A DNA stretch of 64,000 nucleotides from an uncultured Actinomycetes bacterium (GCA_963721795.1 CAVRLT010000014.1:23972-87971); one strand, 5' to 3'. Counted from the stretch's first letter, positions 578 to 57,082 are shown. Program-made: numbers and translations. The notes: generated by a model not told the origin, from the letters alone.

Positions 578-1500
578 GAGCCCGTGGCTTCCTCGAACTT
601 CACCTGCTCTTCGGCGAGCTGATCAGCGCTCAACGCGACGAATCGAGACTGTTCGGCAATCGTGCCGTTGTTGTCGAGCATGTACTCGACGAAGTTCCGG
701 ACGTCCTCTTTCTCGTCGAAGGAGCTCCGCTTCACGTACACGAAGAGCGGGCGCGACAACGGCACGTAGGTGCCGTCCTGGGCGGTGGCGCCGCTCGGCG
801 CGACGCAGCCATCGCCGCCGTCGACCTCGAGCGCCTTCAGCGTGTCCTGGTTCTCCTCGAAGTACGAGAAGCCGAAGTAACCGAGAGCGCCACGGTCGCC
901 GGAGACTCCCTGCACCGTCACGTTGTCGTCTTCTGTCGCCGAGAAGTCGGAGCGACTCGCGCCTTCTTCGCCGTTGATCGCGCCCGTGAAGTAGTCGAAC
1001 GTGCCCGAGTCGGTCCCGGCGCCGTAGAGCTTGAGCGGAACATCGGGAAACGAGGGATCGACCTGATTCCAGTTCGCGACCTTCGATCCGGGCTCCCAGA
1101 TCGAGTTGAGCTGCTCGACCGTCAAGCACGTCACCCAGTCGTTCTCCTTGTTGACCACGTTCGTGAGCGCGTCGGTGGCGACGCGAAACTCGATGTACTC
1201 GACGCCGCCGTCCTCGCACAACACCTGCTCGTCCTCGTCGATCGGCCGCGAGGCATTGGAGAGATCGGTCTCGCCGGCGCAGAATCGCTCGAATCCGCCG
1301 CCCGTCCCGGAGATGCCGACCGTGACGTCGACGTCTTCCGCAGCTTTGAAGTCCTCGGCGGCCTTCGTGACGAACGGGCCGACCGTGCTCGACCCGTCGG
1401 CGGTGATGGCATCGCCTCCCGCACCCCCTCCACCGCAGCCCGTCAAGGCGAGCGCGAGCGCTCCCGACAACGCCAGCGGTACGACCCTGCGCGTGTGCAT
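574..1500 (-). CDS. pstS: Phosphate-binding lipoprotein PstS (ABC substrate-binding protein)
   Basis: This is a 308-aa ORF with a lipoprotein signal (LALTGCGGGG). PstS-like motifs follow: ADGSSTVGPF, GTDSGTFDYFT, SRPLFVYV. It lies immediately upstream of pstC on the same strand. Confidence 0.92.
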   Translation of the reverse strand: MHTRRVVPLALSGALALALTGCGGGGAGGDAITADGSSTVGPFVTKAAEDFKAAEDVDVTVGISGTGGGFERFCAGETDLSNASRPIDEDEQVLCEDGGVEYIEFRVATDALTNVVNKENDWVTCLTVEQLNSIWEPGSKVANWNQVDPSFPDVPLKLYGAGTDSGTFDYFTGAINGEEGASRSDFSATEDDNVTVQGVSGDRGALGYFGFSYFEENQDTLKALEVDGGDGCVAPSGATAQDGTYVPLSRPLFVYVKRSSFDEKEDVRNFVEYMLDNNGTIAEQSRFVALSADQLAEEQVKFEEATGS

Positions 1501-1504
1501 GTCG

Positions 1505-2593
1505 TCAGTGTCCCGAGCCGATTGCAGCCGGCGGGCTGCCTCTTGGTGAACATGTGGTGACAGTCCGGTGAAGCGCTACGCGAGGCGGAACGAAGACGCA
1601 GCTGACTTCGAGGCCTCGCCCGCGGCCACCCCGTGCCTCCACCGTACCCCCCGCCTGCGTCACGATGTGCTTCACGATCGCAAGCCCGAGCCCGGTTCCC
1701 CGCGACGCACGAGCCCGGTCCGCGCGGTAGAAGCGCTCGAAGAGCCGCGGGAGCGCGGCCTCGTCGACGCCCATCCCGTCATCCCGACCCGAGAGCACGA
1801 TCGATCCATCCTGTTCTCGCTCCGCCCGGAGCGTGAAGGTCGTCCCGGGACCCGCGTAGCGAATGGCGTTCTCGGCGAGGTTGCGCGCGACCACGAGCAG
1901 CATGCGCGGCCTGACGGCGAGCTCGAGGTCGGATTCGCATTCCAGAACGAGCGCGACTCCTGCACGGGCCGCCCGCTCGCCCAGCTCGCCGAGAGCTTCT
2001 TCGAGCACGGGCCGAACGGGAGTGGCGCCGAGCGAGACGACCCGCGCACCCGACTCGAGCTCGCTCAGGAACAGCACCTCGTCGATCAGCTCGGTGATCT
2101 GCTCCACTTCTCTCGTCGCCTGCTCGACGAGCTCGGTCACGTCCTCTCCGGGGAGGGTCGCGGTCTCGAGCAGCGTCAACAGCCTCGCTAGTGGCGTTCG
2201 GAGCTCGTGCGAGACGGCCGCAGTGAAGCCGGATCGCAGCTCCTCGTACGCCGCGAGGTCGCCGGCGCGCGAGAAGTACACGAGGCGTTCCCGGCGACCG
2301 TCCGCCTCGTACGGGACGACCAGCGGAATGACGCCGGCAACACCTGCGAGCAGCTCCGGCGGCAGCCGGTCGCCCTCGCGAATGCCCTCGACGCTCTGAC
2401 GCGCGCGCCGACTCGCCAGGAGGACGCGATCATCGTCATCGAGTACTACCACCGCCTCGCGACTCTCCTCGACGAGCGCGCGTACCCGGATCGCGTCGGC
2501 GTCCACCGCGAGGGTTCTAACAGAACGTTTGCGCATCGCTTGCGGCGCGCTCACGAAGCCCAAACTCACATGTCGGTGAATCCAACTCGTCAC
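1505..2593 (-). CDS. Sensor histidine kinase, soluble PAS-like input (SenX3/PhoR-like)
   Basis: The 362-aa ORF carries an H-box (SHELRTPL), an N-box (ARNLAENAIRYAG) and G-boxes (DDGMGV, GTGLGLAIV). I see no obvious TM segment. An alternative ATG start lies at 2536. The gene is adjacent to pstS. Confidence 0.86.
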   Translation of the reverse strand: MTSWIHRHVSLGFVSAPQAMRKRSVRTLAVDADAIRVRALVEESREAVVVLDDDDRVLLASRRARQSVEGIREGDRLPPELLAGVAGVIPLVVPYEADGRRERLVYFSRAGDLAAYEELRSGFTAAVSHELRTPLARLLTLLETATLPGEDVTELVEQATREVEQITELIDEVLFLSELESGARVVSLGATPVRPVLEEALGELGERAARAGVALVLECESDLELAVRPRMLLVVARNLAENAIRYAGPGTTFTLRAEREQDGSIVLSGRDDGMGVDEAALPRLFERFYRADRARASRGTGLGLAIVKHIVTQAGGTVEARGGRGRGLEVSCVFVPPRVALHRTVTTCSPRGSPPAAIGSGH

Positions 2594-2645
2594 CTACGAA
2601 GGAGAGACGAGATGAGACTCAGGTCATTCTGCGCTCACCGGCGCC

Positions 2646-3263
2646 GTGCTCGGCGCCCTCGCGGTCGCATCCGTCGCCGCAGCGGCCGTCATCAACGGCA
2701 CACCGGGCGACGACGTGCTGCGCGGGACCGACCAGGCGGACGAGATTCGCGCGTTCGCCGGCGACGACCGCGTGTATGCGCGAGATGGCGCGGATCTCGT
2801 TCGGGCAGGCTCCGGCGACGACGGCGTTCGCGCCGCGGACGGCGGCGACCTCGCGTACGGCGGACATGGCAGCGACGTGCTGGCCGGCGGGAACGGTGAG
2901 GACCGGCTCAAGGGCGGATCCGACGCCGACACCGTTCACGGAGGCGACGGTGCCGATCGCGTCTCGGGGAACAAGGGCCCGGACGTCGTGAACGGGAACG
3001 ACGGCCCGGACTCGGTCTTCGGCGGCTGGGGCGCCGACCGCGCGTTCGGCGGGGGTGGTGACGACGAGCTCCATGCCTTGGCGGCGGACGGTGACCCTGA
3101 TCTCCTGAACTGCGGGCCAGGGGAAGACAAGGCGTTCGTGCTCCGCGAGGAGCGCCAGTCGACCCGGCTGGTCGGCTGCGAGACCCTCCTCGTCGTGGTC
3201 GAGCTCTCAGCAGATCAGCAGGAAGGCGAGAACGCGGACGCCGACACGGAAGCTGACGGGTAG
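2646..3263 (+). CDS. Secreted calcium-binding protein with hemolysin-type (RTX-like) GGxGxD repeats
   Basis: The 205-aa ORF is full of G-x-x-G-x-D nonapeptide-like repeats (GTPGDDVLRG, AGDDRVYA, GSGDDGVRA, GGNGEDRL, GGDGADRV...). A strong SD (GAAGGAGAG) plus ATG at 2612 is one base out of frame. It would add an MRLRSF..ALTGAVLGALAVASVAAAA signal peptide, so the true start is probably 2612 with an indel near 2630. Confidence 0.7.
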   Translation: MLGALAVASVAAAAVINGTPGDDVLRGTDQADEIRAFAGDDRVYARDGADLVRAGSGDDGVRAADGGDLAYGGHGSDVLAGGNGEDRLKGGSDADTVHGGDGADRVSGNKGPDVVNGNDGPDSVFGGWGADRAFGGGGDDELHALAADGDPDLLNCGPGEDKAFVLREERQSTRLVGCETLLVVVELSADQQEGENADADTEADG

Positions 3264-3282
3264 CGATGCTGGGGTCGCGATC

Positions 3283-3306
3283 GGGGTCTGGCTTCAGCCA
3301 GACCCC
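3283..3306. repeat. REP-like palindromic element, TCTGGC subfamily (GGGGTCTGGC-TTCA-GCCAGACCCC)
   Basis: It has a perfect 10-bp stem and a 4-nt loop, read directly from the sequence. Near-identical copies lie at 7898, 20683, 32219, 32257 and 32296. Confidence 0.9.
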
Positions 3307-3347
3307 GACTCTTCGTTCACCACCCGGATACAGGTCGGTAACCAGCT

Positions 3348-3376
3348 GACGGCCCCCGACCCTTCCGGGGGCCGTC
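3348..3376. other. 11-bp GC-rich hairpin (GACGGCCCCCG-N7-CGGGGGCCGTC) just upstream of the response-regulator start
   Basis: This is a perfect inverted repeat read from the sequence. It has no T-tract. It could be a terminator for the RTX-like gene or a 5'-UTR structure. Confidence 0.4.
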
Positions 3377-3389
3377 ACTATGTGGCCAG

Positions 3390-4085
3390 GTGGCGAAGGT
3401 CTTGATCATCGAGGACGACGACGTCATCGCCCGCGGGATGGCGAGGCACCTCGAGTCGGCCGGGTTCGACGCGGTCGGAGTCGCGAACGGCGAGACGGGC
3501 CTCGCGCGGTTGCGCTACGAGCGGCCCGACGTCTGCGTGCTCGATCTCATGCTTCCCGGAATCGACGGCTGGCGCGTGATCGAGCAGGCGCGGTCGGAGG
3601 GTATCGGCACCCCGATCGTCGTCGTCTCCGCGCGTGGCACCGAGCACGACCGCGTCCATGCGCTCGAGATCGGCGCGGACGACTACCTCGTCAAGCCCTT
3701 CTCCCTCAAGGAGCTGACCGCGCGTGTGCGCGCGGCGGCCCGCCGCGGCGTCAGCGAAGCAGAGCCGCGGCGCGGCGACGCGATCGTCATCGAGGAGCTC
3801 CGCCTCGACCCGAACAACGTGCAGGCGTTCGTCGACGGCGAGAGCGCGGAGTTGACCCCGACGGAGTTTCGCCTGGCGTACACGCTCGCCCGCGAGCAGG
3901 GGCGCGTGCTAACCCGCGACGAGCTGCTACAGCGGGTCTGGGGCCGGCGCGCGACACACCGGGACCGGACGGTAGACGTCTTCGTCCGCAAACTTCGCGA
4001 GAAGATCGACCGCCGCGCGCCTCGTCACACGTTCATCCACACGCGCTACGGCGTCGGCTACAAGCTCGAGGCATTGCCCAAGTAG
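3390..4085 (+). CDS. OmpR/PhoB-family response regulator (RegX3/PhoP-like)
   Basis: The 231-aa ORF has a receiver domain (IIEDDD, DLMLPGIDG, VVVSARG, DDYLVKPF) and a winged-helix output (LTPTEFRLAYTLA, RTVDVFVRKLREKI, YGVGYKL). Confidence 0.92.
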   Translation: MAKVLIIEDDDVIARGMARHLESAGFDAVGVANGETGLARLRYERPDVCVLDLMLPGIDGWRVIEQARSEGIGTPIVVVSARGTEHDRVHALEIGADDYLVKPFSLKELTARVRAAARRGVSEAEPRRGDAIVIEELRLDPNNVQAFVDGESAELTPTEFRLAYTLAREQGRVLTRDELLQRVWGRRATHRDRTVDVFVRKLREKIDRRAPRHTFIHTRYGVGYKLEALPK

Positions 4086-4103
4086 CGGGGGTCGATCCCC
4101 CGC
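4085..4103 (+). terminator. Hairpin GCGGGGG-TCGAT-CCCCCGC overlapping the response-regulator stop
   Basis: A 7-bp GC stem sits directly at the 3' end of the gene. The T-tail is weak (TGCTGGG). Confidence 0.45.
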
Positions 4104-4107
4104 TGCT

Positions 4108-4166
4108 GGGCAGGTCTTCAGCCTGACCGGTGCTGTCCGACAAGACCAGGGTCAGACCCTGGACAC
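4108..4166. repeat. Degenerate REP-like remnants (half-element TTCAGCCTGACC, and CCAGGGTC-A-GACCCTGG)
   Basis: The right arm of the TCAGGC subfamily is present without an intact left arm. Next to it is a collapsed GGGTCAGACCC palindrome, like those at 41214..41240. Confidence 0.5.
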
Positions 4167-4184
4167 GTCCCTTCGGGACGGTGA

Positions 4185-4201
4185 CTCTTGCGCAACAAGA
4201 G
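4185..4201. promoter_or_regulatory. Inverted repeat CTCTTG-N5-CAAGAG upstream of marR (candidate operator)
   Basis: A perfect 6-bp inverted repeat in the marR upstream region. The function is inferred. Confidence 0.3.
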
Positions 4202-4245
4202 TGCGCCGATCGCTCCACAGGCGGCGCGCGATCAGCTAAGCTTCA

Positions 4246-4266
4246 CCTCGTTAATGATTAGCGAGG
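4246..4266. promoter_or_regulatory. 21-bp near-perfect palindrome CCTCGTTAATGATTAGCGAGG overlapping the marR ATG (candidate autoregulatory operator)
   Basis: 9 of 10 arm positions match, with an AT-rich core in a GC-rich genome. MarR regulators typically bind such palindromes at their own promoters (established knowledge). Confidence 0.4.
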
Positions 4267-4697
4267 TTACGGTTGATTCGCAGCAGGTCGCATCCGATCT
4301 CCGGCCGGTGCTGCTGCGACTTTCGCGCGAGCTGCGCAAGGAGACGGAGCAGCTCGGAGTGACCGCGCGCCAGGCGACGCTGCTCTGGCTCGTCAAGCGG
4401 AGTCCCGGGCTCTCGCTCGCGGAGCTCGCGGGGGAGGAAGGCATCACTCCTCCGGCCCTGTCCGGACACGTCGACAGGCTCGAGGCCGCAGGGCTTCTCG
4501 AGCGTGTTCGCTCGACCGAGGATCGGCGCCGGGTGGGCCTCCGCCTCACCGAGGACGGCGTCCGGCTCATGCGGCGCATCCGTGCTCGTCGAACCACCTG
4601 GCTCGCCGATCACCTGCGCGCCCTCGAGCCCGCCGAGCTCGAAGCCGTCGAGGCGGCGATCCCGGCGCTTCGACGATTGCTCGGCGAAGACGCGTGA
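4254..4697 (+). CDS. MarR-family transcriptional regulator
   Basis: Winged-helix MarR motifs are present: LGVTARQATLLWLV, LSLAELAGEEGITPPALSGHVDRLEAAGLLERVRSTEDRRRVGLRLTEDG. The ORF is open from 4188, but ATG 4254 is the more likely start. Its stop overlaps the MFS start. Confidence 0.85.
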   Translation: MISEVTVDSQQVASDLRPVLLRLSRELRKETEQLGVTARQATLLWLVKRSPGLSLAELAGEEGITPPALSGHVDRLEAAGLLERVRSTEDRRRVGLRLTEDGVRLMRRIRARRTTWLADHLRALEPAELEAVEAAIPALRRLLGEDA

Positions 4698-5951
4698 CCT
4701 CGCTCGCGATCGCACTCAGGACGCGCACGTTTCGGAGCCTCTCGAGGCACCGCAACTACCGGATCTTCTTCGCCGGGCAGCTCGTCTCGCTGGCCGGCTC
4801 GTGGATGCAGAACGTCGCGCTCGCGTGGCTCGTGCTCGAGCTCTCCGGGTCGCCGCTCGCGGTAGGCGCGCTCGTCTTCTGGCGATTCGTGCCATTCACC
4901 GTCTTCGGGCTGGCGGCAGGGGTCGTCGCCGACCGCGTGGACTCGCGCAAGCTCGTGATGGCGACGCAAGGGGTCGCGTTGGTCGTCTCCGTCGCGCTCG
5001 CCGTGATCACGCTGACCGGGACCGCGACTCTCCCCATCGTCTACGTGCTCGCAGCGCTCGGCGGCATCACGCTCGCCTTCGACGCGCCGGGCCGTCAGTC
5101 GCTCACCTACCAGATGGTCGGCCCTCGCTCTCTTCCGAACGCGGTCGCGCTGAACGCGGGGCTCTTCAACGGCTCGCGCGTGATCGGCCCCGCGATCGCA
5201 GGCGTCGTGATCGCCGTCGCGGGCACGGGGATCTGCTTCGTGATCAACGCCTTCAGCTTCCTCGCGGTGCTCGCCGCGCTCGCGAGCCTGCGGCAGGAGG
5301 AGCTGCACGCGGTCGAGCGCGACCCCTCCGCGCGGATCGTCGACGGGATGCGCCGCGCACTCGCGCTTCGTCCGCCACGACCCGCAGCTTCGGTCGGTCC
5401 TCGGCGTCGTACGGTCATCAGCACGGTCGGCTTCAACTTCCACGTTCTCGTCCCGCTCCTCGCAGCGGACACGCTCCACGTCGGCCCAGAGGGTTTCGGT
5501 CTCCTGTCGGCGTCGTTCGGCCTGGGTGCCCTCGTCGGCGCTCTCGTCACCGCGAGCTTCCGGCGAGCGAGCTGGCGCCTCTTCGCGACCGGCGCGACGG
5601 GCTTCGGCGTCCTTGCGCTCGCGCTGGCTCCGGTGGACGACGCCGTCCCGGCCGGCGTGCTCGCTCTTCGCGGTCGGAATCTCGTTCACGCTCTTCACCG
5701 CGAACGCGAACGCGCTCGTACAGCTCGGCGCCCCCGACCACCTGCGGGGGAGGATGATCGGGCTCTACCTCTTCGCGTTCGTCGGCCTCGCACCCGTGGG
5801 CGGGCTCCTGACCGGGTGGCTCGCCGACCTGGGAGGGACGCAACTCGCGTTCGCGGTCGCCGGTGCAACGTCACTCGCGACGATCGGCATCGCAAGCCTC
5901 CAGCGCCGCGCGGCCTCGACGGCATTGACCGCCGGGCTGGAAGAGGCGTAG
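4694..5951 (+). pseudogene. MFS transporter (EntS/DUF894-like), reading frame disrupted
   Basis: The N-terminal two thirds are in the 4694 frame (FFAGQLVSLAGSWMQNVALAWLVL...). The last TM helices are in the 5526 frame (LFAVGISFTLFTANANALVQLGAPDHLRGRMIGLYLFAFVGLAPVGG). The frames switch near 5660. In addition, a 17-codon stretch (about 5363-5411) reads as conserved RFVRHDPQLRSVLGVV only in a third frame. Confidence 0.78.
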
Positions 5952-5980: not shown

Positions 5981-6482
5981 ATGAAGAGACGTACACGCTG
6001 GGCACTCGGCGCCGCGCTCCTAGCCGTCGCCGTGGGTCTGGCAGTTCCTGCATTCGTAGGAGCAAAGCCCGACTCGGGCGCAACGGTGCGCTTCGGCAAC
6101 CCGACGGTCGGCAGTCCGTTCCAGCCGCCGGTGTTCGACCACGACTCGTCGTTCAAGGCGGCGGACACACTGATCCCGCAGACGTCGGTGATCTCGGCCG
6201 GAGGCAACGTGACGTTCGACATCGCCGGCTTCCATCAGGCGAGGATCTATGAGCCGGGAACGACGCTCGACGACATCGACGTGCCGCCGTTCCCGCCGGA
6301 GTCGAACATCCTCATCAACGAGGACGAAGGGCTTCTCGATTCGAGCCCGTACCGTTCGCCGCTTCCCAGGGCCGTGGATCCAGGCTGACACGTTCGAGGA
6401 GCCGGGGCGCTACCTCGTCCTGTGCAACGTCACGCCGCACTTCGCATTCGCGAAGATGTACGGCTGGGTGAACGTCAAGTAG
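5981..6482 (+). pseudogene. Secreted cupredoxin-like copper-binding protein, frame disrupted near 6365
   Basis: An SD (AAGGAGGGG) precedes ATG 5981 and a signal peptide (MKRRTRWALGAALLAVAVGLAVPAFVGA). The C-terminal part lies in another frame and ends GRYLVLCNVTPHFAFAKMYGWVNVK, a Cys-x4-His-x5-Met type-1 copper-like ligand set. Confidence 0.6.
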
Positions 6483-26013: not shown

Positions 26014-26238
26014 CGTCAACTCTCGGAAGGAGCGGCACCGCAGTACGTGCTGCGCACATGCACGAAGCCACGTCTACCCCGACCGTGTTGTCGGACACAC
26101 CTGAAGACTTGACTGCGGCGGCGAGCCGCGCTCGCAGCCTGGTGCGGCGAGCCGTTCCTGGACGCCGACGAGGACCCGTCCTCCGCGCTCGCACCCGGGA
26201 CCGCACGCCGTGCCGCGCTCGACCACGCGCTCGAGGAG

Positions 26239-28536
26239 ATGGAGGCCGGCCTCTCCGAGCCATCGTCACGCTGGAAGGTCCGCTACGGCCTGATGCTCGG
26301 GCTCGAGCGCGTGCTCACCGAGGACCTCCCGCGAACCGCTGCCGGGACCGAGCTTCGCCGCCACCAGGTGGACGCACTGGCAGGGATGCTCGCCGAGCTC
26401 ATCGCCTCGACGCAGCGCGCGGCCGACGAGAACGGCAACGGCGGGAACGGCAGCGGGAACGGCGCCGTCGCGGAGGCCGAGCTCGACGAGGAGGCGGACG
26501 ACGACTTCGACGCCGGCTTCATCGACGAGAAGGAGCTGGAGCAGGGCTTCCACGGCTCCGATCCGGGAGCCGTCCGCCGCTACCGCTTCCGCCATCCGAC
26601 GGCTTCTGGCAAGACGATTGCCGCGGCCGGCTTCGTCGAGGCAGCCCGGAAGCTCGGGATCCTGATCCTCACGCACCGCCGCCTGCTCGTCTCCCAGTTC
26701 AAGCGCGATCTCACCACCGAGGGCTACGGCGACCGCTTCACCGACGCGATCCTGAAGGGCACACGCGTCCCGCGAGACAACCCGATCACGATCCAGACGT
26801 ATGCCTGGTTCGCGCGGCACGGAGGCGAGATCGCACCGGACGTGTACCACTTCGTGCTCTGCGACGAGGCGCACACGGCGCTCGGGGAGAAGACGAGCGC
26901 GGCGATCCGCGCCTTCCACGAGCCGCTGTACATCGGCATGACCGCGACCGAGCAGCTGATCGCGAAGCAGGTCTCCGACGTCTTCCCCGCTTCCGTCGAC
27001 GACCTGCCGCTCGGCGACGCTGCCCGGCGCGGGCTCATCGCTCCGCTTCGCTCGCTGCGCGTGCCGCCGGCGGCGGCGATCAACTCGGTCCCGATCGTCG
27101 GCGGGGACTTCGAGGAGCGCGCCCTGGCGGCCGCGCTCGACCACGAGGCCCTGAACCAGGCGGCTGCGAGCCTCTACCGCGAGCGCTTCGGCTCGACGCC
27201 GGGAATCGTCTATGCCGCCGGAGTGGATCACGCGTACAACCTCGCGCAGGAGTTCCGCGCGGCCGGGCTGAAGACGGAAGCAGTCTCGGGACGGACGCCG
27301 CCCGCCCGACTCGCCGAGACCCTGGCCGCCTACGAGCGCGGCGAGATCAACGTCCTCATCAACGCCCAGCTGCTCGCGGAAGGCTGGAACTCGCCTCGAG
27401 CGACTGTCTGCATGCACCTCGCGCCGACCGCCTCCCGGCGCGTCTACCAGCAGCGGATCGGGCGGATCATGCGCATCCATCCGCGGAAGGAAGCCGGCGT
27501 CGTGGTCGACTTCGTGCCCAAGGGCTCGACGCACAACGATCGCGTGATCTCCCTCCACGCCCTGCTCGACGCCGACTTCTACCGCGAGGGAGCTCGCGTC
27601 ACGCCTGCGCCCCGCCGCCGCCAGCAGCGGCGCGCTCGCCGCAAGCTCTCGCCGGTCCCGTGGCTCGTTCCGGTGACGCCGGACGTCGCGCGCCGACTGG
27701 CGGTGATCCAGCGCGAATGGCAGCGGATCGACCCGAAGTACCTCGACGAGGACGAGCAGCGCTTCTGGGCGACGATCGCCGGCAGGCAGATCCGATTCGA
27801 CCAGCGCGCCGAGTTCGCACGGAAGTTCGTCGAGGGGCGCGCGAGCAAGGTCGCGCTCGAGCAGTTCCTCTCCACCTGCGCAGCCGAGAACCCGAATCGC
27901 CGCCTGCGGATCACTGCCCTCCTCGATCGCGTCGCCACTCCGGTCGAGCGTGCCGACTTCGACGACCTCGTGACCCTCGTCACCCAGGCGCCGCCCTGGG
28001 AGAAGGACCGCGCGTCGGGTGTGCGCGTGCTCCTGCGCGCGATCGGGGAAGGCAAGGCCGCAGCGCCGGAGCAGATCCTCGCGCGCTGGACGTGGAAGCT
28101 CGCCAGGGCGACACGCAAGGTGCAGGACCGGCGCGTGTCGACGGAGTTCCCGGAGGCGAAGCGCCTCCTCGGAGCGGCAGCGAACTCACGCGGGTACCGG
28201 CACGAGGAGAACGTCAACCGCCTCGTGCAGGTCGCGATGACGATGCCGATGGCCGTCGGAGCTGCTCTCCTCGCCTCGGCAGACGGCTACACGCCGCGGG
28301 CGAACGCAGCGCTGGACAAGGCCCGCGAGGAGCTCGGCTCGATCGCCGAGATCGCGAACGCCCTCGCCGACAACCTCCCCGCGCCGAAGCTCACTGCGCG
28401 CAAGTCCCGCCGACGGCGGCGGAAGCGCAAGGGCCAGCCGCAGGGACAGGCGCCCGCGGCGCTCGAAGCATCGGCGGACGGCAACTCGGCGGACGCCACA
28501 CCAGCTGTGGCGGAACCGGCCGAAGACGCGGCCTAG
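26239..28536 (+). CDS. Superfamily-2 DEAH-box helicase (ResIII/Helicase_C core) with about 300-aa C-terminal extension
   Basis: The 765-aa ORF has motif I (HPTASGKT), motif II (LCDEAH), motif III (MTAT) and motif VI (YQQRIGRIMR). A possible true start is ATG 26058 (MHEATSTPTVLSDTPEDLTAAASRARSLV), which would be joined by a one-base change near 26140. Confidence 0.82.
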   Translation: MEAGLSEPSSRWKVRYGLMLGLERVLTEDLPRTAAGTELRRHQVDALAGMLAELIASTQRAADENGNGGNGSGNGAVAEAELDEEADDDFDAGFIDEKELEQGFHGSDPGAVRRYRFRHPTASGKTIAAAGFVEAARKLGILILTHRRLLVSQFKRDLTTEGYGDRFTDAILKGTRVPRDNPITIQTYAWFARHGGEIAPDVYHFVLCDEAHTALGEKTSAAIRAFHEPLYIGMTATEQLIAKQVSDVFPASVDDLPLGDAARRGLIAPLRSLRVPPAAAINSVPIVGGDFEERALAAALDHEALNQAAASLYRERFGSTPGIVYAAGVDHAYNLAQEFRAAGLKTEAVSGRTPPARLAETLAAYERGEINVLINAQLLAEGWNSPRATVCMHLAPTASRRVYQQRIGRIMRIHPRKEAGVVVDFVPKGSTHNDRVISLHALLDADFYREGARVTPAPRRRQQRRARRKLSPVPWLVPVTPDVARRLAVIQREWQRIDPKYLDEDEQRFWATIAGRQIRFDQRAEFARKFVEGRASKVALEQFLSTCAAENPNRRLRITALLDRVATPVERADFDDLVTLVTQAPPWEKDRASGVRVLLRAIGEGKAAAPEQILARWTWKLARATRKVQDRRVSTEFPEAKRLLGAAANSRGYRHEENVNRLVQVAMTMPMAVGAALLASADGYTPRANAALDKAREELGSIAEIANALADNLPAPKLTARKSRRRRRKRKGQPQGQAPAALEASADGNSADATPAVAEPAEDAA

Positions 28537-32218: not shown

Positions 32219-32319
32219 GGGGTCTGGCTGAAGCCAGACCCCAGGACTCAAGGCGAGCGGTCTGGCATGAGCCAGACCCCGCCTGAACGAAGCGAGGGGT
32301 CTGGCTTTAGCCAGACCCC
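32219..32319. repeat. Tandem array of three REP-like elements (32219-32242, 32257-32280, 32296-32319)
   Basis: The copies are GGGGTCTGGC-TGAA-GCCAGACCCC, GCGGTCTGGC-ATGA-GCCAGACCCC and GGGGTCTGGC-TTTA-GCCAGACCCC, separated by 14 and 15 nt. The array lies between convergent genes. The loop of the third copy supplies the TAA stop of the gene at 32307. Confidence 0.92.
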
Positions 32320-33230
32320 GGTTCGACGACCGCGCTCACCGCTTCCTCCAGCTCCCGCACGGACACCGCGCCTTCGAACCGCTCGATGATCTTCCCGTCG
32401 CGCCCGACGAGGAAGGTCCACGGCTCCGTCTCGAGGCCCCACTCCCGCACCCACTTGTTGAACCCCTTCGCAGGATCGTTGCCCTCGTAGACCTCGACGT
32501 GGATGAACCGGACAGGCTTCCCCTCGAAACGGCTCGCGGTCTCCTCGAGGACGTCCACCACGGGCCCGCACGTCCGGCTCGTGCAGAACTTCGGCGTCGA
32601 GAACGTGACGACAAAGGGGAGCTTCGCGCGCAGCGAGTCGGCGATCGAGTGCCGGAGGAGGCTCGTGTCCGGCGGCGTCCTCGTCGTCAGCTTCGAGAAG
32701 TCGCCTCCGGCCGATGCGAGCGTCGGCGTCTCGGAGGGAGGCGCAGGATCTCCCGGGCTCGGCGTACTGTCGTTTCCCGACACCACGACGTTCCCGAGCG
32801 CTTGCACCGGCTTCCCGCTTTCCGGCTCGGCGAGCAGCCAGTACGTGCCGGTCTCCGGCAGCCGGAGGTGCGCGACGTAGATGTGCGTGGCGTCGGCCTC
32901 GGCTCCTCCGGGAACACCGATGCGCTCGAGCTTCGCCTTCGACTCGAGGAACGGTGGGGCTTCGAGTGCCCGCGCGACCCAAACGCGCGCCGTCGGGAGC
33001 AGCGAGACGCGTCCCTGGCCGTCGACGACGAGGAAGGAGACGCGAACGTCACCGGGCTCGTGGCTCTGTGTGCCTGCGATCACAGCGACGTCGTCGCCCG
33101 GCGCGCGCCAGAGCTGCTCGAGCGTCTTGCCGTCGCCGGGAGCCCCCGCCGTCTCCGGGTCGTCGTCGGACCCACCACATCCGATCGGGAAGAGACACGC
33201 CGCCGCGAGCAGTGCTATCGCAGGGCGCAT
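32307..33230 (-). CDS. Lipoprotein with C-terminal thioredoxin-fold (TlpA/SCO-like) domain
   Basis: The 307-aa ORF has a lipobox (ACLFPIGCGG). The C-terminal region is FVVTFSTPKFCTSRTCGPVVDVL...FIHVEVY...WTFLVGRDGKIIERFEG, typical of redoxin/SCO-type proteins. Confidence 0.72.
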   Translation of the reverse strand: MRPAIALLAAACLFPIGCGGSDDDPETAGAPGDGKTLEQLWRAPGDDVAVIAGTQSHEPGDVRVSFLVVDGQGRVSLLPTARVWVARALEAPPFLESKAKLERIGVPGGAEADATHIYVAHLRLPETGTYWLLAEPESGKPVQALGNVVVSGNDSTPSPGDPAPPSETPTLASAGGDFSKLTTRTPPDTSLLRHSIADSLRAKLPFVVTFSTPKFCTSRTCGPVVDVLEETASRFEGKPVRFIHVEVYEGNDPAKGFNKWVREWGLETEPWTFLVGRDGKIIERFEGAVSVRELEEAVSAVVEPGSG

Positions 33231-33278
33231 ACGCGTCCAGTGTAGACACGTGATCCCACTGGACCTGCCGAGGCGAGT

Positions 33279-33304
33279 GCCGGGCCGGTGAGCGCCGGCC
33301 CGGC
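33279..33304 (-). terminator. Hairpin GCCGGGCCGG-N6-CCGGCCCGGC about 20 nt downstream of the small ORF
   Basis: A perfect 10-bp GC stem read from the sequence. It lies between the sORF stop (33323) and the next gene start (33230). Confidence 0.45.
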
Positions 33305-33322
33305 CGCAGTCTCAGAAGTGAC

Positions 33323-33418
33323 TCAGTGGCCGTCAGGCCACGACATGGGGGCGTGGTTGCCCATCCATGCCGCGAGCAGAGCCAGGTTGACGAGAAGAAG
33401 GATCAGCTTCGGCTTCAT
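33323..33418 (-). CDS. 31-aa hydrophobic pre-peptide / small membrane protein (MKPKLILLLVNLALLAAWMGNHAPMSWPDGH), candidate signalling-peptide precursor
   Basis: ATG 33418 lies 14 nt after the regulator stop, and the SD (GGAGAGGAGG) overlaps that stop. The peptide has a Lys-rich n-region, a 14-residue hydrophobic core and a polar 13-residue tail. Third codon positions are mostly G/C, as in real genes here. A hairpin follows. The ORF track embeds it in a longer 70-aa ORF (33323..33535) whose N-terminal part overlaps the regulator. Confidence 0.55.
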   Translation of the reverse strand: MKPKLILLLVNLALLAAWMGNHAPMSWPDGH

Positions 33419-33432
33419 GGCGACCTCCTCTC

Positions 33433-34764
33433 CTAGAAGCGGATTTCCTGGAGCGCCTCGGCGGCGTTCCGGTACAGGCGTGCCGACTCGCGGTCGTCTC
33501 CACGACGAGCCGCGAGATCTCCCAGTGCAACCCACGCCTCTGCCCGGTGGCTGACCGACGCCAGCTGCTCTGCAGCCTCATCAGCCTTCCGGAAGCAGTC
33601 TCCCGCCTCATCGAGGCGCCCGCGCTCCATCAACGCTCGCCCAAGTACGAGCTGTGACGGGCAGACCTCGTGGAGGTAGTCCTCCCGACCTTCCAGGAGA
33701 GCGAGCCCCTTGCGAGCGAGCTCGTCCGCCTGGTCGTACTCGCCGCGGTTCAGATGAACCCTGGCGAGACCCTGGAGCGCCTGCGCGGCGTCCGGGGGCG
33801 AATCGCTCTCCAGCGCCTGGGAAAACGACGCCTTCAAGTGCTCGACGGCCTGATCCTCGTCTCCCAGAAGAAGCGTCAGACCACCGAGTGCGAGTAGGAG
33901 CCGGCCGACGTTGCGCTCGTCATTCAGCTCCTGGTAAAGATCTTTGGCACGCTGCGCGTAGCTGCGTGACAGGACCCAGTGGCCCTGACGCTGCGCGATG
34001 AGCGACGCTTGGAAGTAGGTGTTCGCAATCGCGCGCCGATCGCCCAGGTCCTGCGCGAGCTCGAGCGCGCGCTCGACGTCCTCGTGGGCCGCGACATAGT
34101 CTCGCTGCAGCCGGTGACATCGCGAGCGCCAGCCCAGGATGTCGGCGCGAAGTAGATCGCACGGCAGGCCGGACTGCTCCGCGAGCGCGAGCGCCTCGTC
34201 GAACAGCGCAACCGCCGTTCCGACGCTCGACAGCTTGTATCGGCAGACCCCGATGCGAAAGAGCACGTCCGCACGGTCGACATCGGAGAACTGCAGGCCC
34301 TCGGCAACGTCCCGCGCCTGCTGGAGGAGCTCGAGCGCGGGATTGATGTCACCGCTCTGCTGGAGCGCCCAGGCCGCGCCGGAGAGTGCGCGGAGCTCGA
34401 ACGCCGGGGCCCACGTTCCCGCGGACCGGGCATCCGTGAACGCCTCGATCGCCTCGGAGTACTGATGCGACTCCGAGAGCGCTTCCGCGCGGGCCAGCAA
34501 CGCCTCGACCTTCGTGCGGTCCTCGATCGAGACTCCGATCGAGAGGAATCCCTGGTCGACGCCGAGCCGTTCTGCGAGCCAGGCGACCGTCGCCTCGGTC
34601 GGCCGGGTCTTGCCCCGCTCGATCTGGCTGATGTACTCCTTCGAGACGCGTCCGCCGGCGAGCTCGACCTGCGTCATTCCCGCAGCGACGCGGAGCGCGC
34701 GCACGCGCTCGCCCAGGCGTGCTCCGCCTGCGGGCGTCGGGGTCGTCGTTTTCGTTTCGCTCAT
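33433..34764 (-). CDS. XRE-family HTH transcriptional regulator with large TPR-like C-terminal domain (RRNPP/Rgg-like architecture)
   Basis: This is an intact 443-aa ORF. The N-terminal HTH is LRVAAGMTQVELAGGRVSKEYISQIERGKTRPTEATVAWLAERLGV. The remaining ~370 aa are helical repeats rich in A/L/E/R with repeated ...A..L...G....A......A... TPR-like periodicity. Confidence 0.85.
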   Translation of the reverse strand: MSETKTTTPTPAGGARLGERVRALRVAAGMTQVELAGGRVSKEYISQIERGKTRPTEATVAWLAERLGVDQGFLSIGVSIEDRTKVEALLARAEALSESHQYSEAIEAFTDARSAGTWAPAFELRALSGAAWALQQSGDINPALELLQQARDVAEGLQFSDVDRADVLFRIGVCRYKLSSVGTAVALFDEALALAEQSGLPCDLLRADILGWRSRCHRLQRDYVAAHEDVERALELAQDLGDRRAIANTYFQASLIAQRQGHWVLSRSYAQRAKDLYQELNDERNVGRLLLALGGLTLLLGDEDQAVEHLKASFSQALESDSPPDAAQALQGLARVHLNRGEYDQADELARKGLALLEGREDYLHEVCPSQLVLGRALMERGRLDEAGDCFRKADEAAEQLASVSHRAEAWVALGDLAARRGDDRESARLYRNAAEALQEIRF

Positions 34765-34851
34765 TCCGTGTCGCCCATGCTCACCGGAGTGAACCTGCGA
34801 TGCGGGCGGTGCGCTCTCCCCCGAGTAGGGGATGTGCGCCTACCGCACCTG

Positions 34852-34895
34852 GGTCAAGTAAGAGTATCCGAAATCACTTGACCGGGCTACTTGAC
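34852..34895. promoter_or_regulatory. Candidate operator: GGTCAAGT-N16-ACTTGACC inverted repeat plus a third ACTTGAC half-site
   Basis: A perfect 8-bp inverted repeat (34852-34859 and 34876-34883) sits in a locally AT-richer divergent region. A third half-site (34889-34895) overlaps the -35 of the plus-strand promoter. Confidence 0.45.
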
Positions 34896-34919
34896 TTTTC
34901 TGGACACGCCTCCTATAGT
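34891..34919 (+). promoter_or_regulatory. Sigma-70-type promoter TTGACT-17 nt-TATAGT
   Basis: The -35 is at 34891-34896 and the -10 at 34914-34919, with exactly 17 nt between them. This is the closest match to consensus that I found in the window. Confidence 0.55.
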
Positions 34920-34925
34920 CAGGCC

Positions 34926-35102
34926 CACACCGCACCGATCGGACGCCAGATCGGATGCGCGGGCGCCACCGCCGGATCCGTCGACGGGCGCAGGAAGAGC
35001 GTGGCTGGGCCGCAGAGCCACGATTCTCCGGCCTCTCGACCCGGGAAGGGGTCGCCTCGAACGGAGAACGCCCCCGGAGCCGCAGCCGGGGGCTTTCTCG
35101 TT
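34926..35102 (+). ncRNA. Candidate small RNA (~180 nt) of unknown family
   Basis: The region starts about 7 nt after the -10 element and has no credible ORF. Internal stem-loops lie at 34935-34954 (CCGATC/GATCGG) and 35001-35021 (GTGGCT/AGCCAC). It ends in CCCCCGG-N8-CCGGGGG followed by CTTTCTCGTT (35071-35102). The boundaries are inferred, not measured. Confidence 0.4.
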
Positions 35103-35103
35103 C

Positions 35104-35130
35104 GTGGGGGAAACCTGCGGTTTCCCCCAC
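35104..35130. other. 12-bp hairpin GTGGGGGAAACC-TGC-GGTTTCCCCCAC
   Basis: A perfect inverted repeat directly after the putative sRNA terminator. It may act as a second or bidirectional terminator between the convergent transcription units. Confidence 0.4.
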
Positions 35131-35248
35131 GAGCCCCCTTCCCTTCGCGCCGGGTCAAGGCAGCGTTGCTCGAGGCCTGCGGGCGAATGAATCGCCCTCC
35201 GGCCTTCGGACGCGACGCCGACTCAGTCGTTTCTCCGGCTGGTCGTAG

Positions 35249-56318: not shown

Positions 56319-57082
56319 GCTGTCGCCAGCTCGCCGTTCGCACGCATCTTCCGAAGCACGTAGTGGAGGATCACCCGGCCGATCGCGAAGCTGATTGCTC
56401 CCAGGAGCACAACGGTGCCCAGGCGCTGCCAGAAGTCGTCGATCGGAGCCTCGTTGACGCTCGCGCGCAGGAGATCCGAGCTCCAAGAGACGAACAAGAC
56501 GGTCGAGATCGGGTGCACCCAGTCGGGGAGGAGCGCGACAGGGACGAAGACGCCCCCGAGGAGGTAGAGCGGGAAGCTGGTCGAGTTCGTGAAGGTGTAC
56601 GCATTCCGGGTCATCACGAGCAGCGCCGAGAACGTCACCGCCAGTCCGGCCATCGCGACTGCCGTGAGAGCGAGCGTGACGAAGAGCTCGAACGGGTGCT
56701 CGAGAGGAATCGAGACCCCGAAGACGAGCTTCGCCACGATCCAGACCTCGACGAACGACAGGAGGCCGAAGCACATCAGCAGCATGATCCGCCCGAGCAG
56801 GAACGACGCGAGGCTCGACGGCGCCGCGACCATCGGCTCGAGAAGCGCCTGCCAGCGGTCCCCGGCCATCACCGTCCCGGCGTGCTGTAGCGCGACCCAG
56901 AGCAGGGTCATCAACACCGGCGCCATCAGCGCGTCCGCGGTCAAGTCGTCTCGTCCGCTCTGGCGGACGATCGCGAGGAAGATGATCGCGAACAGCGGCG
57001 CAGTGAAGAGGGGCATGAGCGCATCGGGGCTCGAGCGCACGATTCGGAGCTCGAGGCGGAAGCCCGCGGCGAACGCCTTCAT
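56315..57082 (-). CDS. ABC-2-type transporter permease
   Basis: The protein starts at ATG 57082 ([23 protein letters not shown]...), which overlaps the ATPase stop (ATGA). It has six predicted hydrophobic segments. Confidence 0.75.
   Translation of the reverse strand: MKAFAAGFRLELRIVRSSPDALMPLFTAPLFAIIFLAIVRQSGRDDLTADALMAPVLMTLLWVALQHAGTVMAGDRWQALLEPMVAAPSSLASFLLGRIMLLMCFGLLSFVEVWIVAKLVFGVSIPLEHPFELFVTLALTAVAMAGLAVTFSALLVMTRNAYTFTNSTSFPLYLLGGVFVPVALLPDWVHPISTVLFVSWSSDLLRASVNEAPIDDFWQRLGTVVLLGAISFAIGRVILHYVLRKMRANGELATA

Follow-up and report, generated by a model that had tools for sequence, protein, structure and literature searches.

The window analyzed here, a 64,000-nt stretch of DNA from an uncultured Actinomycetes bacterium (CAVRLT010000014.1:23972-87971; G+C = 69%), carries on its minus strand a two-gene cassette. 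Its first gene (REG, 33433..34764, (-)) encodes a cytoplasmic regulator of 443 aa with an XRE-type helix-turn-helix (HTH) and a superhelix of tetratricopeptide repeats (TPRs). It is followed by a small open reading frame (sORF, 33323..33418, (-), 31 codons plus stop) encoding MKPKLILLLVNLALLAAWMGNHAPMSWPDGH. The sORF is almost certainly a genuine coding gene, and the motif at the C-terminus of its product very probably contacts the TPR groove of REG, as judged from the co-variation of the two sequences. Our best reading, which we hold at about even odds, is that REG and the sORF act as a receptor and its pro-peptide, working like the RRNPP systems of Firmicutes.

Coding status of the sORF and co-variation with REG

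The two genes are closely spaced. The TAG stop codon of REG (33435-33433) is the start of the string TAGGAGAGGAGG, and its last base is also the first base of the Shine-Dalgarno (SD) sequence GGAGAGGAGG (33424..33433, (-)). After fourteen nt (33419-33432) the ATG of the sORF follows at 33418, and the frame closes with the stop codon at 33325-33323. An initial annotation of this DNA had described the embedded stop, the spacing and the 31-codon frame, all of which agreed with the sequence, and the layout makes translational coupling of REG and sORF likely.

Relatives were collected by a scan with one genome per species, which resulted in 80 loci with a REG identity of 68-97%, 79 of them with sequence past the REG stop codon. 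A ribosome-binding site, GAGAGGAGG, was present over or just past the REG stop in each related locus, with its GGAGG core kept in 79/79 cases, 5-9 nt ahead of the start codon. The sORF started 13-20 nt past the REG stop, with ATG in 64 and GTG in 15 loci, and was intact in 78 of the 79, having a length of 29-35 codons and the same design throughout. Two loci, L044 and L046, had variants resembling a frameshift or read-through, reflecting either faulty assembly or a natural loss or variation: in L046, a frame shift puts the tail H-S-W-P-D-G-S in another frame, and in L044 the frame reads on past SWPDG.

The G+C-rich third codon positions (GC3) of the sORF, noticed at the outset, amounted to 26/31, matching the local genes (0.79-0.93). 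The variation between loci was concentrated at third codon positions, with Ser encoded by both TCN and AGC. Pairwise pN/pS in frame was 0.29 for the N-terminal 19 codons and 0.13 for the SWPDG block, whereas the same nucleotides gave 1.07 and 3.29 in the +1 and +2 shifted frames, respectively. The expectations of the initial annotation concerning a syntenic short ORF with a conserved tail in the orthologues, a translation signal in front of it and purifying selection on both frame and tail were thus borne out. Automated gene callers list the peptide merely as a 'hypothetical protein' (exact look-up), and a Pfam search with E up to 10 returned nothing meaningful for it.

The consensus of the peptide was M-K-P-R-L-L-L-L-L-V-N-L-A-L-L-A-A-W-L-G, followed by 4-11 variable residues, the motif S-W-[P/S]-[D/E]-G-[H/N/S/L/T/Y] and 0-3 more residues. 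Every variable peptide position was compared with every REG column in 78 pairs, using normalized mutual information (MI). Motif position 3 was Ser in combination with REG Asn292 (19/19) and Pro in combination with Ala, Met, Thr or Leu292 (59/59), while motif position 4 was Asp with Tyr176 (68/68) and Glu with Trp or Phe176 (10/10), so that normalized MI reached 1.0 for both position 3/residue 292 and position 4/residue 176. REG residue 177 gave 0.82 with motif position 4. The last tail residue followed REG 211 and 249, being His with Gly + Thr, Asn, Ser or Leu with Gln + Ala, and Ser or Thr with His + Asn; L047 represents an independent Asn/Gln211 case and L001 one recent exception. In comparison, a phylogenetic null made of 1,341 variable columns of five neighboring proteins from the same loci had maxima of 0.57 and 0.62, none reaching 0.7, and 0 of 15,888 distant column pairs inside REG reached 0.99. 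Parsimony on the tree of neighboring genes required 7 switches between Pro and Ser and 4 between Asp and Glu; on the REG tree calculated without the co-varying columns, the numbers were 5 and 3. Each tail switch was exactly mirrored by the partner residue in REG.

The hydrophobic half of the peptide and its linker showed background-level association with REG and with every neighbor. Such confinement of the co-variation to the tail is expected if the mature C-terminus alone meets the receptor. The co-varying REG residues belong to the A-helices of TPR1-7 and, with the helix limits of the AlphaFold2 (AF2) model, have the offsets 2, 6, 9, 12 and 16, which form one helix face. In canonical TPRs this face lines the groove, and position 9 usually holds the peptide-clamping Asn. 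Residues 176, 211 and 292 were assigned to the groove by their helix register instead of by measured distances. Overall, the tail/REG co-variation is taken as strong evidence that the motif contacts the groove.

The same data bear on the possibility that the sORF works only as an RNA or translational element, such as a coupling or leader ORF for the downstream gene or a site of nascent-chain arrest, which can be considered essentially refuted. The sORF is indeed very short and abuts the promoter of the next gene in most loci. However, the purifying selection acts at the amino-acid level and goes along with synonymous turnover, the REG residues that co-vary with the tail are encoded at a distance of 450-800 nt, and the sORF is retained in rearranged, even convergent, positions. 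As for arrest, the motif is followed by between 1 and 4 residues, and this variable motif-to-stop length speaks against stalling at one set position. TnaC-like stalling was rejected on the same grounds, as well as on the Pro to Ser replacement in 19/78 peptides and on the length of the 31-aa chain, which is still inside the ribosome tunnel at termination.

Peptide anatomy, fold of REG and distant relatives

The N-terminal part of the peptide resembles a signal sequence. The net charge over the first five residues was +2 in 72/78 peptides, and the uncharged run of the Gaiellaceae/Thermoleophilia peptides comprised 14-24 residues (mode 16). The putative -1 position was Ala in 75/77 and the -3 position Leu or Val in 74/77 peptides. 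A cut at Ala-Ala would free a peptide of 12-18 residues with the conserved motif at its C-terminal end, and with these features the peptide is probably exported. Positions N11, A13, A16, A17, W18 and G20 are nearly invariant, and the conservation of N11, A13-x3-A17, W18 and G20 suggests a specific membrane interaction, which may involve a dedicated exporter, an intramembrane protease or helix packing.

Export received further support from distant relatives of REG. An exhaustive profile search gave 241 cluster representatives at E below 1e-30, including full-length relatives at 35-56% identity, and the gene contexts of several of these were fetched. Regulators 42-56% identical to REG kept a small signal-peptide ORF in spite of changed neighbors; it encoded 32-59 aa and was located anywhere from overlapping to ~140 nt away, or was convergent. 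At L082 (REG 56%), within rpsF-ssb-rpsR-rplI, the SD lies over the stop codon and the product of 59 aa reads MLRKLALLTATAALALSSAHTALA up to the putative cleavage site and GGAKSS...RRGFSDGN past it. L090 (50%) has an overlapping TGATG and encodes MRKVIALVVLAAATALAVA with GGAGAAPGHGHHFGVGGGISDGR past the site. The small ORF of L089 (50%), ending in ...ASLASLGGSWFDGS, is found 140 nt downstream, and that of L081 (49%), ending in ...LASLGGGWFDGS, on the convergent strand. The products at L086 (42%) and L088 (43%) end in ...ILGGHGHGGGFVGH and ...AQVHHHRGGRGFHEW, respectively; at L084 (44%), the signal-like ORF is cut by the contig end. Both L084 and L086 have the small RNA (sRNA) described below upstream of the regulator. 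The L088 pair sits between hrcA and dnaJ.

Most of the distant small ORFs end with aromatic-x-D-G-x (GFSDGN, SWFDGS, GWFDGS), and a non-aromatic variant, ISDGR, also occurs. In L082 (TALA/GG) and L090 (AVA/GG), a hydrophilic pro-region comes after a canonical A-x-A site, which argues that the partner is really exported. A side observation concerns an abundance of His, Gly or Cys in many of the linkers between the hydrophobic segment and the motif (HGHGGG, HHHRGG, PGHGHH, KCKC, GRHH), as in L086 (1713-1814), L088 (~4395-4502) and L090 (1565-1693). The same enrichment, there modest, is seen in several Gaiellaceae peptides. It might point to metal binding or to a site for a protease.

These results also weaken an alternative already named in the initial annotation, namely that the sORF product is a stable single-pass membrane miniprotein, comparable to MgrB or Prli42. 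It would tether or sequester REG, or act together with an extracytoplasmic partner such as the TlpA/thioredoxin-like lipoprotein encoded downstream of it (32307..33230, (-), 307 aa, lipobox FPIGC, C-x4-C). The conserved Asn with the small-x3-small pattern (A13...A17) is typical of helix-helix packing, 14-24 uncharged residues can span a membrane, and the lipoprotein is syntenic in 76/80 loci. On the other hand, the positive-inside rule, given the +2 N-terminus, places the co-evolving tail outside, away from the cytoplasmic TPRs. Moreover, the hydrophobic half co-varies with neither REG nor the lipoprotein above background, the distant members have cleavable signal peptides and hydrophilic mature parts, and the lipoprotein is missing from distant loci that retain the pair. 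We consider a membrane miniprotein quite improbable, with the packing pattern and the spanning length still speaking for it.

The predicted architecture of REG agrees with the proposed receptor function. Pfam assigned HTH_31/HTH_3 to residues 16-71 and TPR_12 (E 2e-28), TPR_2 and TPR_MalT to the remainder, thereby confirming the N-terminal XRE HTH and the TPR-like repeats of the 443-aa protein. The AF2 model (pLDDT 88.4) comprised the HTH at ~14-67 and then nine helix pairs at ~80-442, with a regular 40-residue period from ~161. The TPR domain is thus modeled confidently as a superhelix of the peptide-binding type. Its top Foldseek matches were the TPR domains of LGN/Pins with groove-bound peptides (TM up to 0.83 on the target) and consensus TPR superhelices; the PlcR-PapR7-DNA complex (3u3w) followed at rank 36 (E 1.7e-7) and RapJ-PhrC (4gyo) at rank 44. 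In a sequence search of the PDB, RapF/RapJ were matched at E 0.003-0.01 and ComR at E ~1e-5, the latter with the HTH part alone. Other sequence matches were to generic TPR and XRE proteins, together with weak TPR matches to SycD/LcrH-type chaperones, and the Rgg C-terminal model did not match REG. The suspected peptide-binding fold was therefore recovered by AF2 and Foldseek, although it is closer to LGN/Pins and consensus TPRs than to PlcR/Rap. Likewise, of the 'RRNPP/Rgg-like cassette' first suggested, the RRNPP-like way of working gained support and the 'Rgg/SHP-like' part was not indicated. The architecture corresponds to the PlcR, NprR or AimR type; common descent with these would be a further hypothesis.

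Operator-like repeats, candidate divergent sRNA and gene neighborhood

Upstream of REG, the initial annotation had pointed to an inverted repeat with an N16 spacer and a third half-site, and both are present: GGTCAAGT-N16-ACTTGACC at 34852-34859 and 34876-34883, and the third half-site at 34888-34895. The GTCAAGT half-sites themselves (34853-34859 (+), 34876-34882 (-) and 34889-34895 (-)) form an operator-like cluster, which in REG orientation reads GTCAAGT-N6-GTCAAGT-N17-ACTTGAC. The consensus of the conserved upstream region, in the same orientation, was AAAA-GTCAAGT-N6-GTCAAGT-GATTT...TAnnGT-T-ACTTGAC, after which comes a leader hairpin. The tandem GTCAAGT pair was kept in 75/76 loci and the third half-site in most. 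The cluster was also found upstream of the L084 and L086 regulators, 42-44% identical to REG, and single GTCAAG(T) sites precede the regulator in L085, L088 and L089. GTCAAGT occurs 7 times in the window versus 3.3 expected, a count that alone is not significant, with three of the copies within 43 nt. Lone copies at 6474-6480, 26107-26113 and 56940-56946 lie where the GC3-based gene list called no gene, one of these being upstream of a helicase-like gene at 26239. These could be either further REG targets or chance matches.

The putative -10 element of the REG-sORF operon, TACTCT (TAnnnT type; 34861..34866, (-)), lies inside the spacer of the inverted repeat, which makes autoregulation likely; the upstream alignment has a conserved TAnnGT at this position. 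The REG leader contains in nearly all loci a hairpin (34816..34834, (-)) with the consensus ACATCCCCC-N4-GGGGGAGCGCG. This hairpin (CCCCC-N4-GGGGG), ~50-60 nt before the REG start codon, is SD-like and away from any start codon.

A sigma-70-type promoter, TTGACT-N17-TATAGT (34891..34919, (+)), is directed away from REG. It is near-consensus, with 10/12 matches (0.1 expected in shuffles), was conserved in 79 of the 80 loci having upstream sequence, and has its -35 element inside the third GTCAAGT half-site. Behind it comes a candidate sRNA of ~175-180 nt (34921..35100, (+)) with an intrinsic terminator at 35070-35093. The stretch is non-coding and conserved, its length differing by 1-2 nt between loci. 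Its parts are a 5' hairpin looped by GACGCCAG, a long helix in the center with a GGGCCGCAG loop at its tip, and the terminator with the loop AGCCGCAG. In the proposed structure 89% of the cells were paired, and 53 double-sided changes were counted against 22.7 in shuffles (0/500), with much lower values for slid controls. The motif GCCGCAG is present in two of the hairpin loops, and in three in L084. Its pairing with CTGCGGC after the sORF was considered and dropped, since CTGCGGC occurs in some loci only and overlaps the -10 element of the next gene.

Searches of Rfam (no match at E of 1 or less) and for tRNA/tmRNA (ARAGORN) gave nothing for the sRNA, and nhmmer found one copy of it in the window (34921-35099). 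In L084 and L086, sRNA homologs were detected by nhmmer divergent to REG relatives of 42-44% identity, behind the same tandem GTCAAGT. The linkage to distant REGs and the shared operator make the sRNA a third member of the module, often linked to the other two. From this arrangement it is the most likely regulated output, and the GTCAAGT sites probably allow REG to control itself as well as the sRNA. A 14-bp inverted repeat without mismatches, TCGTGGGGGAAACC-tgc-GGTTTCCCCCACGA (35102-35132), immediately follows the sRNA terminator, and similar sequences containing GGGGGAAAC recur after the sRNA in many related loci. The repeat faces the convergent TetR-MFS operon and may serve as a second terminator or a bidirectional one.

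The genomes closest to the window are metagenome-assembled genomes labeled Gaiellaceae, Thermoleophilia or Actinomycetota. In Gaiellaceae, the order of genes in this part of the core genome is collinear: acyl-CoA synthetase, MFS, (TetR), REG, sORF, TlpA-like lipoprotein, SDR, AIR-synthase-like and CtaA. The 10-bp GC hairpin noted earlier after the sORF is present at 33279..33304 (-) as GCCGGGCCGG-6 nt-CCGGCCCGGC. It was found in the close relatives of the window; in most other loci, the promoter of the next gene directly follows the sORF. Homologs of the downstream lipoprotein are named 'thioredoxin family protein' or 'TlpA family' in databases, and Pfam (E up to 10) returned a weak Thioredoxin match alone; an unusual C-x4-C (CTSRTC) occupies the place where CxxC is expected. 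Its columns did not co-vary with the peptide above background. Since it is syntenic with the cassette in the Gaiellaceae and absent at distant loci retaining the REG-sORF pair, the lipoprotein is probably no core part of the module. The window has a -10-like TACACT (33239-33244) 8 nt before the lipoprotein ATG, and the sequence GGCTA[GC]ACTCGGGCGCGT-ATG (33228-33252, (-)) is conserved directly after the sORF in most of the loci L008-L078. With a TAnACT box 8-9 nt before the ATG, the lipoprotein mRNA is probably leaderless.

The genomic setting also bears on a toxin-antitoxin-like explanation, in which a hydrophobic membrane-damaging peptide would be neutralized by REG as an autorepressing HTH partner. 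The regulator-first order, the tight coupling, the XRE HTH, the inverted repeat in the own promoter and the ~30-aa hydrophobic peptide would all suit such a system. Nevertheless, it is very improbable: the module is single-copy, syntenic and part of the core genome, with 68-97% identity family-wide, and has neither a mobile-element context nor phage copies, whereas type II systems are patchy, mobile and often multi-copy in their distribution. Furthermore, the receptor is a 443-aa TPR protein as opposed to the small labile antitoxin of type II systems, the strongest selection falls on the polar C-terminal motif, and the distant partners are hydrophilic secreted pro-peptides.

Proposed mechanism, known systems and significance

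The mechanism that we propose for the REG-sORF pair starts with co-transcription and likely translational coupling of both genes. The N-terminal half of the 29-35-aa pre-peptide, being basic and hydrophobic, would direct it into the membrane or the Sec pathway, and a cut, probably after Ala-Ala 16-17 or by an intramembrane protease, would release a peptide of ~12-18 residues ending in S-W-[P/S]-[D/E]-G-x. This peptide, or a shorter C-terminal fragment, would then be taken up again, which is the weakest step of the scheme. Inside the cell, the C-terminal motif would bind the concave groove formed by the A-helices of REG TPR2-TPR7, where residue 176 would read tail residue 4 (D/E), residue 292 tail residue 3 (P/S), and residues 211 and 249 together the last residue. 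Binding may alter the occupancy by REG of the three GTCAAGT sites between the divergent promoters and in this way control the REG-sORF operon and the strongly promoted sRNA, the -35 of which is in a half-site. Our guess is that both promoters are repressed by REG in its peptide-free state and derepressed by the peptide, giving positive feedback; the sign of the effect is likewise a guess. That the peptide is released, re-imported and used for sensing of density is possible by analogy, but we lean slightly against it.

Several findings weigh against the proposed mechanism, the first three being a poor fit to a classical quorum-sensing pair. The signal is near-invariant family-wide, the cassette belongs to the core genome and the hydrophobic segment is conserved, indeed more so than in a generic signal peptide. 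REG is the best-conserved gene of its neighborhood, unlike the pherotype diversification known from quorum-sensing pairs, and each genome of the 80 species has a single, syntenic copy of the cassette, off mobile elements. A scan of phages for REG homologs gave HTH-level matches alone and no phage copy, RRNPP-specific Pfam/NCBIfam models did not match REG, and no genes of an oligopeptide permease, dedicated exporter or protease were found in the conserved neighborhood. Finally, at L085 (REG 35%; 2199-2486), the most distant relative examined, a SHOCT-domain protein of 95 aa takes the place of the small ORF with the same tight SD-after-stop layout, so that partners of other kinds may occur in the family.

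The main rival explanation dispenses with re-import. In it, REG would bind the tail of the unexported pre-peptide in the cytoplasm, export would remove the ligand, and REG would report the export/insertion capacity or the rate of peptide synthesis rather than density, following the logic of FlgM/sigma-28 or of type III secretion chaperones that double as co-regulators. The tail-TPR contact and the likely translational coupling fit this explanation equally well. An importer, none being seen nearby, would be unnecessary, and a conserved single-copy core module with an almost invariant tail would be well suited to it. The L088 copy (1476-5636), inserted between the genes of the heat-shock repressor HrcA and the chaperone DnaJ, and the weak matches to SycD/LcrH-type chaperones point in the same direction. 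However, a peptide of ~31 residues with a signal sequence would quit the cytoplasm fast, and the cleavable signal peptides and hydrophilic pro-regions of L082 and L090 resemble classical secreted pro-peptides. Moreover, we know of no HTH-TPR regulator that operates by pre-export binding. Overall, such export-coupled sensing seems unlikely, albeit not negligible.

The receptor/pro-peptide reading can be compared with the operational signature of RRNPP systems, which consists of a pro-peptide of 10-100 aa, secreted (Sec/SPase I by SignalP, or PptAB for SHP/PrgQ), and a receptor of 250-500 aa with peptide-recognizing TPRs as a direct neighbor, at -60 to 400 bp (PMC10075063). Four of the five criteria of PMC10075063 agree with REG-sORF, namely pro-peptide size, receptor length (443 aa, inside 250-500 aa), TPRs and adjacency. 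Secretion was judged by hand from the +2 n-region, the uncharged run of 14-24 residues and the putative -1 Ala, and from A-x-A in L082/L090. Given the resemblance to LGN/consensus TPRs and the lack of a match to RRNPP models, the pair is best described as one that 'works like an RRNPP pair', not as an 'RRNPP family member'. Its host (Gaiellaceae/Thermoleophilia/Actinomycetota) is outside the described RRNPP range of Bacillota, their plasmids and phages. RRNPP_detector was applied to Firmicutes and viruses only (PMC10075063), and our literature search found no report of RRNPP-type systems in Actinomycetota.

The closest analogies would be PlcR/PapR in terms of architecture and arbitrium in terms of the small RNA-type output gene. 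PlcR/PapR and NprR/NprX, whose pro-peptides are exported by Sec, share with REG-sORF a receptor that is cytoplasmic, measures 250-500 aa and has its XRE-type HTH at the N-terminus and its TPRs at the C-terminus; a small ORF directly next to it and in the same direction, the product of which begins with a basic and hydrophobic part; a conserved pro-peptide C-terminus contacting the receptor; and an operator in the pair's own promoter region. In contrast to them, REG occurs in Thermoleophilia and has canonical 40-residue repeats of the TPR_12 type instead of degenerate ones, and REG-sORF is a single-copy core module with an almost invariant signal motif and no pherotypes. In arbitrium (AimR-AimP-aimX) of Bacillus phages, the gene of an HTH-TPR receptor is likewise succeeded by one for a short pro-peptide that has a signal sequence and carries its mature peptide at the C-terminus, and the output is, as here, a small RNA-type gene. 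The AimR operator consists of widely spaced inverted half-sites, resembling the GTCAAGT arrangement. However, arbitrium is phage-borne, whereas REG-sORF has neither a viral homolog nor detectable homology to arbitrium, and the REG target is divergent, not downstream, with three half-sites, two of them in tandem.

Rgg/SHP and ComR/ComS also combine a receptor made of an XRE HTH and a repeat domain with a very short peptide in which Lys/Arg precede a hydrophobic part. The active parts of SHP/ComS are hydrophobic and exported by PptAB, whereas the tail in question is polar (W-P-D-G-H type) and comes after a separate hydrophobic segment. LGN/Pins and consensus TPRs have 40-residue repeats like REG and bind peptides along the inner groove, but they are eukaryotic scaffolds or designed proteins with no DNA-binding domain, so that the likeness is one of fold and not of system. 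In the XRE-DUF397 pairs, the partner is a soluble DUF397 protein not known to have a signal-like segment and the regulator is not known to carry a TPR domain, which sets them apart from REG-sORF. What the Streptomyces XRE-DUF397 pairs (Scr1/Scr2, WhiJ-type) have in common with it is an actinobacterial XRE regulator with a small gene immediately downstream (bioRxiv 10.64898/2026.06.17.732583).

The co-variation makes specific predictions: Y176 should go with Asp, W/F176 with Glu, N292 with Ser and A/M292 with Pro. Although the organism is uncultured, these are approachable by point mutants and synthetic C-terminal peptides (SWPDGH, WMGNHAPMSWPDGH), and the linked sRNA with its near-consensus promoter could serve as a read-out of the targets of the system. 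Even if the export-coupled explanation were true, regulation would be arranged in a new way, with a TPR-HTH regulator reading the C-terminal end of a mini-pre-peptide.

Cytoplasmic HTH-TPR peptide signaling has been treated as a hallmark of Firmicutes and mobile elements, and actinobacterial signaling is thought to be based on small molecules, such as gamma-butyrolactones (PMC10075063). Against this background, we tentatively suggest that REG-sORF may be the first case in Actinomycetota of communication by a genetically encoded peptide and a cytoplasmic receptor, RRNPP-like, arisen or diverged outside Bacillota, fixed in the core genome of Gaiellales and having an sRNA as output. If so, a near-universal aromatic-x-D-G-x signal would be read by a TPR groove, and the output would be a new, strongly expressed sRNA with two or three GCCGCAG hairpin loops. 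Gaiellales/Gaiellaceae are among the most abundant uncultured soil bacteria, and the logic of peptide signaling would then extend to another phylum and to a dominant uncultured lineage of soil.

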